Of a stretch of 29,958 bases of DNA, positions 15,902-16,555 are shown in pieces (position 1 is the stretch's first letter; the number at the start of each line of letters is the position of its first letter). The stretch is taken from positions 1 through 29,958 of the forward strand of contig JAHBWA010000114.1 in assembly GCA_019637195.1 (NCBI GenBank), given 5' to 3'. The position numbers and the translations under genes were made by a program. This DNA is from Labilithrix sp. (GTDB taxonomy: Bacteria; Myxococcota_A; Polyangia; Polyangiales; Polyangiaceae). The notes beneath the pieces were generated by a model. The model worked only from the letters and a program-made list of their open reading frames with translations. It did no database searches and was not told the origin of the DNA.

Positions 15902-16555
15902 TCACCCCTCGCGCGCCGCCGCGCGCCAGTCGTCGCGATGGATGTACTGCTCGACGTAGCCCTGGAGCGCGTTGCGCATCGTGCGGTGCGTGACGACGCC
16001 CGAGAGATCGACGCCCATGTGGATGATCGTCTGCGCGATCGCCGGGTTGATGCCGGTGAGGAGGCAGTTCGCGCCGAGCAGCCGCACGGCGCGCGCCATC
16101 CGGAGGAAGTGGTCCGCCGTCCCCGTGTCCATCACCTGGATGCCGGTGATGTCGATGATCGCGCAGTCGGCCTTCTTGCTGACGATCGCGCTGAGGAGGG
16201 CCTCGGTCATCTCGGCGCTGCGCGTCGTGTCGAGCACGCCGACCACGGGCAGGCAGAGGACCCCCTCCCAGACCTCGATGATCGGCGTCGAGAGCTCGCG
16301 GATGGCGGCGCGCTGCACCTCGATCATCGCGAGCTTCTCCTCGAGCTCGCGCTGGTACGTCGCGCTGCGCTCGCGCTCCCGACCGAGCGAGGCGATCATC
16401 TCGTTGATTCCGTCGAAGAGCGTGGTGATCGCGTGGTCCGGGGGCAGGTCGCTCTTCAGCCGGACGCTGTAGTCGCCGTCGCCGACGTCGGCGGCGACGA
16501 GCAGGATGTCGGCGATGCGCTCGAGCATCTGCGAGGCGAGGATGGCGTCGGTCAT
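15902..16555 (-). CDS. RsbR-like protein, paralog 1: short N-terminal helical/coiled-coil domain plus C-terminal STAS domain.
   Basis: STAS segment VLCLPVVGVLDTTRSAEMTEALLSAIVSKKADCAIIDITGIQVMDTGTADHFLRMARAVRLLGANCLLTGINPAIAQTI. The N-terminal part has a coiled coil, QRELEEKLAMIEVQRAAIRELS. Start ATG 16555 sits 4 nt after the upstream gene's TAG. Confidence 0.8.
   Translation of the reverse strand: MTDAILASQMLERIADILLVAADVGDGDYSVRLKSDLPPDHAITTLFDGINEMIASLGRERERSATYQRELEEKLAMIEVQRAAIRELSTPIIEVWEGVLCLPVVGVLDTTRSAEMTEALLSAIVSKKADCAIIDITGIQVMDTGTADHFLRMARAVRLLGANCLLTGINPAIAQTIIHMGVDLSGVVTHRTMRNALQGYVEQYIHRDDWRAAAREG

Follow-up and report, generated by a model that had tools for sequence, protein, structure and literature searches.

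Two genes for RsbR-like STAS proteins lie about 6 kb apart in the 29,958-nucleotide (nt) stretch of Labilithrix sp. DNA analysed here (contig JAHBWA010000114.1, positions 1 to 29,958; referred to below as the window), and their close likeness raises the question of whether they record a recent duplication, ongoing gene conversion, or an old pair that selection has kept alike. A preliminary description of the sequence favoured recent duplication or gene conversion, with homogenisation perhaps still under way; this is contradicted by the synonymous baseline, by the site patterns in quartets of orthologs, by the family tree and by the placement of the two genes in different subfamilies. We conclude that the two genes, referred to here as copies A and B (Table 1), are very probably anciently diverged paralogs of one highly conserved ~215-amino-acid (aa) RsbR-type family in Labilithrix-like myxobacteria, A having probably been relocated together with a cassette of other genes. 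The pair is one of ordinary ancient, strongly constrained paralogs in an unusual context.

Both copies are intact open reading frames (ORFs) whose products match Pfam STAS. The GC content of the window is 71%, genuine genes stand out by a GC content at third codon positions (GC3) of ~0.9, and the codon statistics of both copies are gene-like (GC1/2/3 of 0.66/0.44/0.96 for A and 0.67/0.42/0.95 for B); B encodes 222 aa from a GTG at 22660 or 216 aa from an ATG at 22642. The pairwise nucleotide comparison that the preliminary description had proposed, a MAFFT alignment of 15850-16600 and 21950-22700, gave a high mean column identity (86%) that ended where the coding sequences end, with no similarity between A and B beyond them. 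As had been described, the products share ~85% identity (85% over 201 aa by tblastn; 81% by global alignment) and the STAS block is nearly identical: in the protein core (A residues 62-197), 131/136 residues (96%) are the same. The likeness of the antisense ORFs at the two loci (15972..16472 and 22053..22439; 87% mutual identity) was also correctly seen, and is a by-product of the DNA similarity, because the underlying sequences are alike and antisense frames at 71% GC seldom hit stops. The differing contexts hold as well, with RsbW-like, HMG-CoA-reductase (HMGR)-like and unknown genes around A, and RsbS-like, Hpt and CheB genes around B.

High nucleotide identity of paralogs (~90%) is no sign of recency in GC-rich genomes, nor is the near-identity of their antisense ORFs; an ortholog synonymous baseline is needed first. 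Low nucleotide identity, named in the preliminary description as the outcome that would refute it, likewise cannot discriminate between explanations in a genome of such composition. Within the core, the proportion of synonymous differences (pS) between A and B was 0.31 (Nei-Gojobori dS 0.40). At 101/131 identical residues the same codon was used and at 30/131 a different one, almost all by third-position G/C swaps, as against the 87/131 identical codons expected from independent draws of the window's codon usage. Codons were shared at 77% of identical residues between A and B, and at 70-77% between A and its homologs from other genera (loci L003-L009), the cross-genus baseline as a whole covering 67-80%. 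Across the pS matrix, A-B stood at 0.35, true orthologs at 0.15-0.25 and distant homologs at 0.30-0.50; the A-B values of 0.32-0.35 lie on the plateau of homologs from other genera, and the B of the same genome was no nearer to A than the B of another genome (pS(A_x,B_x) ~ pS(A_x,B_y)). Core nucleotide identity in 90-nt windows was 88-93% for A-B, equal to A-L003 or A-L006, and exact runs extended up to 44 nt between A and B and over 37-56 nt between A and the other-genus homologs. A single 30-codon window (A residues 153-182) had a lower pS, 0.17. Partial conversion tracts were considered and rejected: the sliding-window comparisons of A with B, with B_L001 and with B_L002 (the B copies of loci L001 and L002, below) looked alike, and the low-pS window had no same-genome excess. 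The ~90% nucleotide identity of the two copies arises because 96% amino-acid identity is combined with a GC3 of ~0.95; their nucleotide similarity is wholly explained by purifying selection on the protein core and extreme GC3 codon bias.

The age of the split can be read from relatives. With one genome scanned per species, nine loci were found, all in Labilithrix-like Myxococcota metagenome-assembled genomes (MAGs), and both copies, in the order seen in the window, occur in L001 (ACE_MYX10) and L002 (ACE_MYX7), with identities to the window of 98% and 93% for the A orthologs and 97% and 96% for the B orthologs, respectively. Quartet site patterns supporting orthology, same-genome pairing and cross pairing numbered 79:4:2, 62:4:7 and 61:4:8; the quartets pair A with A and B with B, and no conversion has occurred since the lineages of the window, L001 and L002 separated. 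The A/B split came before at least three of the sampled lineages diverged, and no trace of homogenisation after they did so is seen.

In a neighbour-joining (NJ) tree of 125 family members with 100 bootstraps, the A trio was recovered in 98 and the B trio in 100, and an exclusive A+B clade in 0/100; the smallest split containing both A and B held a median of 75/125 taxa. This phylogeny across relatives, of the kind that the preliminary description suggested, denies A and B a clade of their own. The family is large: at E<=1e-20, 2680 relatives were retrieved from 5.8 billion proteins. The best 120 of these show 70-98% identity and, with a single 370-aa exception, are ~210-230 aa long; the label 'rsbT co-antagonist protein RsbR' is often given to them by JGI. 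The core is near-invariant across the whole family, and the neighbouring genes compared between the window and L003 are 60-84% identical. At the 18 fixed A/B differences B is mostly in the family-consensus state, and A is the derived sequence with many rare states; a search for derived residues common to A and B against other genomes yielded one weak, homoplastic site only (the T in 'SATYQ'). With a paralog pS above that of the orthologs, and with quartets and bootstraps against it, A and B do not belong among recent or concerted pairs.

The two copies instead fall into separate subfamilies, and in the tree many foreign sequences come between A and B. Members of the 'Y/S' type (STLY + LDSTRS; the B trio, L003-L007, L009, P0056 and P0025/L018) all follow an RsbS-like gene, ten of the 11 copies directly and that of L009 with an H-NOX-fold gene between. 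Members of the 'F/T' type (TLF + LDT(T/A)RS; the A trio, P0013, P0085 (L012), P0053 and P0112 (L010), P0055 (L016), P0041 (L015), P0058 (L017) and L008) do not adjoin RsbS, and at L008, L010, L015, L016 and L017 they lie beside TamB. The types differ at the site equivalent to RsbRA T171, Ser in B and Thr in A, with Tyr (B) vs. Phe (A) as a second marker. B belongs to the subfamily that adjoins an RsbS-like gene in a conserved signalling locus; A belongs to the second subfamily, found elsewhere at the TamB locus, alone or within a prenyltransferase cassette. A also has in common with P0013 both the F/T signature and the C-terminal tail YVE.YIHR.D, and on the P0013 contig, from another organism, the STAS gene adjoins an ortholog of the window's H-NOX-fold gene. 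One genome carries a Y/S copy at its RsbS locus (L007) and an F/T copy at its TamB locus (L008), and both subfamilies of these short myxobacterial RsbR-type proteins occur together in at least five sampled genomes, a pattern to be expected were a single multi-subunit hub to receive several inputs.

How A came to lie 6 kb from B is suggested by the order of genes. In compact loci with a single STAS gene (L003, L018), the order is CheA-like, slr1658-like HATPase, GAF-PP2C, small GHKL kinase / response regulator / CheB, Hpt / RsbS, STAS, RsbW-like / PP2C-like. Between B and the RsbW-like gene, the window, L001 and L002 have six genes, namely those for a LuxR-type response regulator, a DMAT prenyltransferase, a flavin adenine dinucleotide (FAD) oxidase, an HMGR-like protein and a 189-aa protein, and copy A itself. 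The same block, with its own F/T STAS gene, is present at other loci (L010, L012 and L016, the last with the HMGR-like gene included), where the regulator, DMAT, oxidase and HMGR-like proteins are 65-83% identical to those of the window and the H-NOX-fold protein 42-70%. The slot 3' of the RsbS-linked STAS gene is empty in L003 and L018. Its cargo in L004 and L006 is of the P450/DMAT/oxidase kind, beside one STAS gene, and in L005 and L009 it contains genes for a sigma-54 response regulator, a PAP2 protein and an FG-GAP protein; this slot, between the RsbS-linked STAS gene and the RsbW-like/PP2C genes, is a hotspot for differing cargos. We propose that a cassette carrying A came to sit between B and the resident RsbW-like kinase gene; if A arrived with the cassette, the 6-kb spacing would therefore result from an old paralog having moved, and not from tandem duplication on the spot. 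Campbell-type integration by a single crossover, which predicts chimeric copies, was set aside as unsupported, B being resident-like and A F/T-like at both ends.

It is very improbable that the copies owe their nucleotide-level likeness to a recent segmental duplication or to gene conversion still under way. Identity of 86-90% over ~600 nt, the longest exact run and the one low-pS window would all fit such an event, but pS(A,B) lies on the family plateau, well above the orthologs, identical-codon use equals the cross-genus baseline, and exact runs of similar length are found with other genera; moreover, the same-genome site patterns (4, 4, 4) do not rise above the cross patterns (2, 7, 8), vs. 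61-79 for orthology, the similarity stops with the coding sequence, and A and B never form a clade. We give practically no credence to the suggestion, also raised in the preliminary description, that the second copy is an assembly artefact arising from a mis-joined or expanded repeat. The one point in its favour is the presence of a repeat in possibly metagenome-derived sequence, whereas ~14% of bases differ between the copies, their N- and C-terminal coding ends are distinct, both ORFs are intact with gene-like codon statistics, and the same two-copy order recurs in the independent MAG assemblies ACE_MYX10 and ACE_MYX7; because of these base differences and this recurrence, B is not such an artefact.

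A more serious competitor, though one we consider unlikely, is an old local duplication of the RsbS-linked gene in the ancestor of the window, L001 and L002, after which cargo was inserted between the copies and A diverged faster, its F/T likeness being convergent or plesiomorphic. The direct repeats flank the cargo exactly, A lies ahead of the RsbW-like gene, where the single copy of L003 sits, related cargo occupies the same slot beside one STAS copy in L004 and L006, the many rare states in A are consistent with acceleration, and the deep nodes of the tree are weak. Against it, A and P0013 have in common the F/T signature and the tail, P0013 lying beside an H-NOX-fold ortholog on a foreign contig; the whole regulator/DMAT/oxidase/(HMGR)/H-NOX-fold/F/T STAS block recurs elsewhere (L010, L012, L016); and one genome (L007, L008) has Y/S and F/T copies at separate loci. 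Several points weigh in turn against the relocation of an anciently diverged A. Distances alone fit a local duplication with an accelerated A converging on F/T states; the association of F/T and Y/S types with context (Fisher p = 2e-9) is uncorrected for phylogeny; and the tree, NJ-only, is built on ~60 variable columns, joining the A trio to P0013 in 30% and the B trio to L003 in 5% of bootstraps. In L004 and L006 the cassette fills the same slot and no second STAS gene is present, and the history therefore comprises more than one event; the relocation may have run from the TamB to the RsbS locus or the reverse. On the functional side, the small kinase of the B locus (25120-25530) had no PDB RsbT match at E<0.01, and co-assembly, phosphorylation and an interaction with the H-NOX-fold protein are all inferred.

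Table 1. Positions of the two STAS genes, of their repeated core and of neighbouring genes in the window.
Feature	Position	Strand	Description
Copy A	15902..16555	-	217-aa RsbR-type STAS protein, 'F/T' subfamily; Pfam STAS E 8e-13; signature TLF, LDTTRS
Copy B	21992..22660	-	RsbR-type STAS protein, 'Y/S' RsbS-linked subfamily; Pfam STAS E 5e-13; signature STLY, LDSTRS
Direct repeat, arm 1 (reference)	15949..16248	.	STAS core of A; 300 nt
Direct repeat, arm 2	22030..22329	.	STAS core of B; 90% identity to 15949-16248, spacing 6081
PP2C (SpoIIE-like) protein, weak	13476..14309	+	Pfam SpoIIE E 7e-5, below cutoff; convergent with A operon
RsbW-like GHKL serine-kinase / anti-sigma-type protein	15302..15874	-	190 aa; downstream of A; Pfam HATPase_c_2 E 5e-12
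H-NOX-fold protein	16560..17129	-	189 aa; stop 4 nt ahead of A start; AlphaFold 2 (AF2) pLDDT 92.8
HMG-CoA-reductase-like protein	17150..18208	-	352 aa; first gene of A operon; Pfam HMG-CoA_red E 2e-61
FAD-linked oxidase, cytokinin-dehydrogenase-like	18590..20083	+	Pfam FAD_binding_4 + Cytokin-bind; orthologs in L004, L006, L010, L012, L016
DMAT-type aromatic prenyltransferase	20038..21255	-	Pfam Trp_DMAT E 1.5e-18
Response regulator with LuxR/GerE-type helix-turn-helix	21348..21974	+	Pfam Response_reg + weak GerE
RsbS-like single-domain STAS protein	22739..23188	-	149 aa; upstream of B, same strand; Pfam STAS
Hpt-domain protein	23157-23546	+	Pfam Hpt; start probably later; divergent from rsbS-B
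CheB-type methylesterase response regulator	23543-24643	+	Pfam CheB_methylest + Response_reg; divergent from rsbS-B
Single-domain response regulator	24659..25075	-	Pfam Response_reg
Small GHKL kinase, RsbT/SpoIIAB size	25120-25530	+	136 aa; Pfam HATPase_c, HATPase_c_2; NCBIfam SpoIIAB E 1e-10, below cutoff
GAF-PP2C (SpoIIE-type) phosphatase	25531-26856	+	Pfam SpoIIE E 5e-38
slr1658-like HATPase_c_2 protein	26926-27465	+	
133-aa ORF	27462-27863	+	between slr1658-like and CheA-like genes
CheA-like Hpt-HATPase kinase	27850/27673-29376	+	true start probably 27850

The assignment of both copies to the RsbR type follows from comparison with known structures. The best PDB matches of A (phmmer) are the stressosome RsbR chains 7o0i_B, 6qcm and 7b0u, from Vibrio, Bacillus and Listeria (E 1e-28 to 4e-29); RsbR chains as a whole match at E 4e-29 to 2e-26 and RsbS chains at 4e-11 to 8e-8, and the NCBIfam SpoIIAA and anti-anti-sigma models match weakly, which places A closer to RsbR than to RsbS or SpoIIAA. 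In the alignment with RsbRA of 6qcm, 'GTIDTERA' corresponds to 'GVLDTTRS' in A and 'LDSTRS' in B, and 'VVDTMVA' to 'VMDTGTA'; we take the 'IDTERA' and 'VVDTMVA' stretches of RsbRA to hold T171 and T205, and judging from this alignment the copies appear to retain phosphorylatable equivalents of these sites, that of T171 being Ser in B. The AF2 model of A (mean predicted local distance difference test score, pLDDT, 87.5) comprises a helix (3-25), a loop (26-41), a helix (42-88), the STAS domain (93-190) and a final helix (193-216). HAMP (PF00672) matches the N-terminus at E 0.007, with 17 bits vs. a cutoff of 25 and over its first half only; the predicted helix-loop-helix geometry fits HAMP, and by eye the sequence resembles the G-D-hydrophobic and I..L...(F/I)N.M motifs. 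In outline, A is predicted to have a HAMP-like hairpin and a linker helix ahead of the STAS domain, with a C-terminal helix after it. Neither the AF2 model nor Pfam gave an N-terminal globin-like or other ~130-150-aa globular sensor in the 217 aa of A, which for want of a globin-like sensor domain departs from RsbR proteins in one defining feature.

Compared with the stressosome RsbR proteins (B. subtilis RsbRA-RD and YtvA, Listeria RsbR1 and its paralogs, Vibrio RsbR), A and B are alike in having a C-terminal STAS domain after a long linker helix, an RsbS-like partner gene beside B, and a small GHKL kinase and PP2C phosphatase in the locus. They differ in that a ~40-residue HAMP-like hairpin stands in place of a globin-like, haem or LOV N-terminal domain, and in that the paralog cores are 96% identical. 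The gene order is also different from that of stressosome loci, rsbS preceding rsbR while the kinase and phosphatase belong to a divergent operon of their own, and there is no sigma-B module in the neighbourhood, which holds Hpt, CheB, response regulators and a CheA-like kinase instead. The RsbR paralogs of B. subtilis likewise combine a common STAS end with differing N-termini in one genome, and the co-assembly of several of them in one stressosome is established (PMC9765535). The RsbRST modules of Vibrio vulnificus and V. brasiliensis are similar in joining RsbR, RsbS, a kinase and a phosphatase to two-component-type proteins, not sigma-B (PMC9237108, PMC10014275, PMC4976288); Vibrio RsbR has a haem-binding globin sensor, whereas here the part of sensor, if there is one, would fall to a separate protein of H-NOX fold that lacks the haem ligands, and the second paralog lies within a prenyltransferase/oxidase cassette. 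A search of the literature on myxobacterial stressosomes, on HAMP-STAS proteins, and on DUF2378, H-NOX or V4R with STAS found nothing specific.

We reasoned that the near-invariant linker-plus-STAS core may be kept because both paralogs dock the same partners, as stressosome RsbR paralogs do; these would be an RsbS-type scaffold, PP2C phosphatases, and kinases of the RsbT/RsbW type with the conserved Ser/Thr sites as their phosphorylation targets. Each paralog could receive its own input through its divergent N-terminal hairpin and C-terminal helix, and it is a reasonable suggestion, by analogy, that two RsbR paralogs feed one complex. A probably takes its input from the neighbouring, translationally coupled H-NOX-fold protein, which would serve as a stand-alone sensor of a ligand, and the output is probably two-component or chemotaxis-like, not sigma-B, as in Vibrio (PMC9237108).

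The locus of B holds the RsbS-like gene, the GAF-PP2C gene and a 136-aa kinase gene without a specific RsbT match, and A has no adjacent RsbS gene. The RsbS-like protein has RsbS chains (6jhk, 6qcm_A) as its best PDB matches, its 'MVDS' aligning with their 'MIDS'/'FIDS', a stretch that presumably holds Ser59 of RsbS. The 190-aa protein downstream of A matches the NCBIfam RsbA and RsbW models weakly, and its L003 ortholog lies directly 3' of the single STAS gene. PDB sequence searches gave neither the 136-aa nor the 190-aa kinase as RsbT or RsbW, and we call these GHKL proteins RsbT/RsbW-like by size, domain and conserved position only. Orthologs of the weak PP2C protein adjoin RsbW-like genes in L003-L006, L009 and L018, which makes it a conserved partner. 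The gene order of 26926..29376 recurs in L003-L007 and L018; within it, the 133-aa ORF matches 131/132-aa genes in L018 and L019, of which the L019 one has a weak STAS_2 match, and this ORF may form with its neighbour another kinase/STAS pair in the locus. Some 12 kb from the partner-switching genes lies a gene for an extracytoplasmic-function (ECF)-type sigma factor (3053-3601, - strand; Sigma70_r2/r4), a possible output of these genes.

The gene directly upstream of A encodes a protein whose fold was recognised from its model: in Foldseek searches of the PDB, the top 36 matches of the 189-aa protein were all H-NOX domains (template-modelling score, TM, 0.5-0.72), although Pfam (HNOB included), NCBIfam and PDB sequence searches gave no match. 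Its 20 homologs are all annotated as hypothetical, and their alignment has no His in the helix of residues 101-115, which we take to be the proximal-His helix of H-NOX, and no YxSxR among its invariant columns; the protein would thus have an H-NOX-like fold without the haem ligands. Paralogs of this gene adjoin the STAS family in L004, L005, L006, L009, L010, L012, L016, L018 and L019. Stand-alone bacterial H-NOX proteins encoded beside signalling genes are known, and the protein of the window is like them in being a single-domain protein of this fold (TM to 0.72) with a stop 4 nt ahead of a signalling gene; it differs in its 6-15% sequence identity, in lacking YxSxR and in having a STAS protein as partner, not a histidine kinase or cyclase.

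The HMGR-like protein scores 225.6 bits against NCBIfam TIGR00532, below the cutoff of 259.95, and aligns to residues 45-363 of the 426-aa 5wpj_A. In that alignment the ENxxG, DAMGAN, NK and GNDWRA stretches, presumably those of the catalytic Glu, Lys and Asp, are kept, and the C-terminal ~60 residues of class II enzymes, which we take to be the flap with the catalytic His, are missing; the protein could be a ligand-binding protein or a non-canonical enzyme. In both L001 and L002, tblastn gives a match of equal extent with the H-NOX-fold gene directly after it, and an HMGR-like gene also lies ahead of the F/T STAS gene in L016. The DMAT/oxidase/LuxR-regulator cassette is itself recurrent (window 18590-21974; L004 10800-17116; L006 11280-16994; L010 7357-15825). 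DMAT orthologs are 66-83% identical in L004, L010, L012 and L016 and 50% in L006, and LuxR-type regulator orthologs are 76-79% identical in L010, L012 and L016. The cassettes of L004 and L006 also include a P450 gene, and that of L010 a gene for a tryptophanase-like beta-eliminating lyase. From its gene content, the cassette suggests prenylated-indole chemistry. We regard as speculative and improbable the further idea that the F/T RsbR and its neighbours (the H-NOX-fold and HMGR-like proteins, the prenyltransferase, the oxidase and the LuxR-type regulator) constitute a self-contained unit for both producing and sensing a signal. A prenylated indole or other isoprenoid-derived small molecule, made or turned over by the cassette, would be bound by the H-NOX-fold protein and the signal relayed via A into a stressosome-like hub shared with B; if true, the stressosome would here have a secondary-metabolite input of endogenous origin. 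To our knowledge, the signals of stressosomes have been established in few organisms, and the H-NOX-fold protein and the prenyltransferase cassette are named here as candidate inputs.

Elsewhere in the window, 5083-8271 (- strand) encodes a 1062-aa protein with Major Vault Protein (MVP) shoulder, Vault_3 and Vault_4 matches (Pfam E 8e-14, 1e-6 and 5e-3), and its product looks like a bacterial MVP-like protein.

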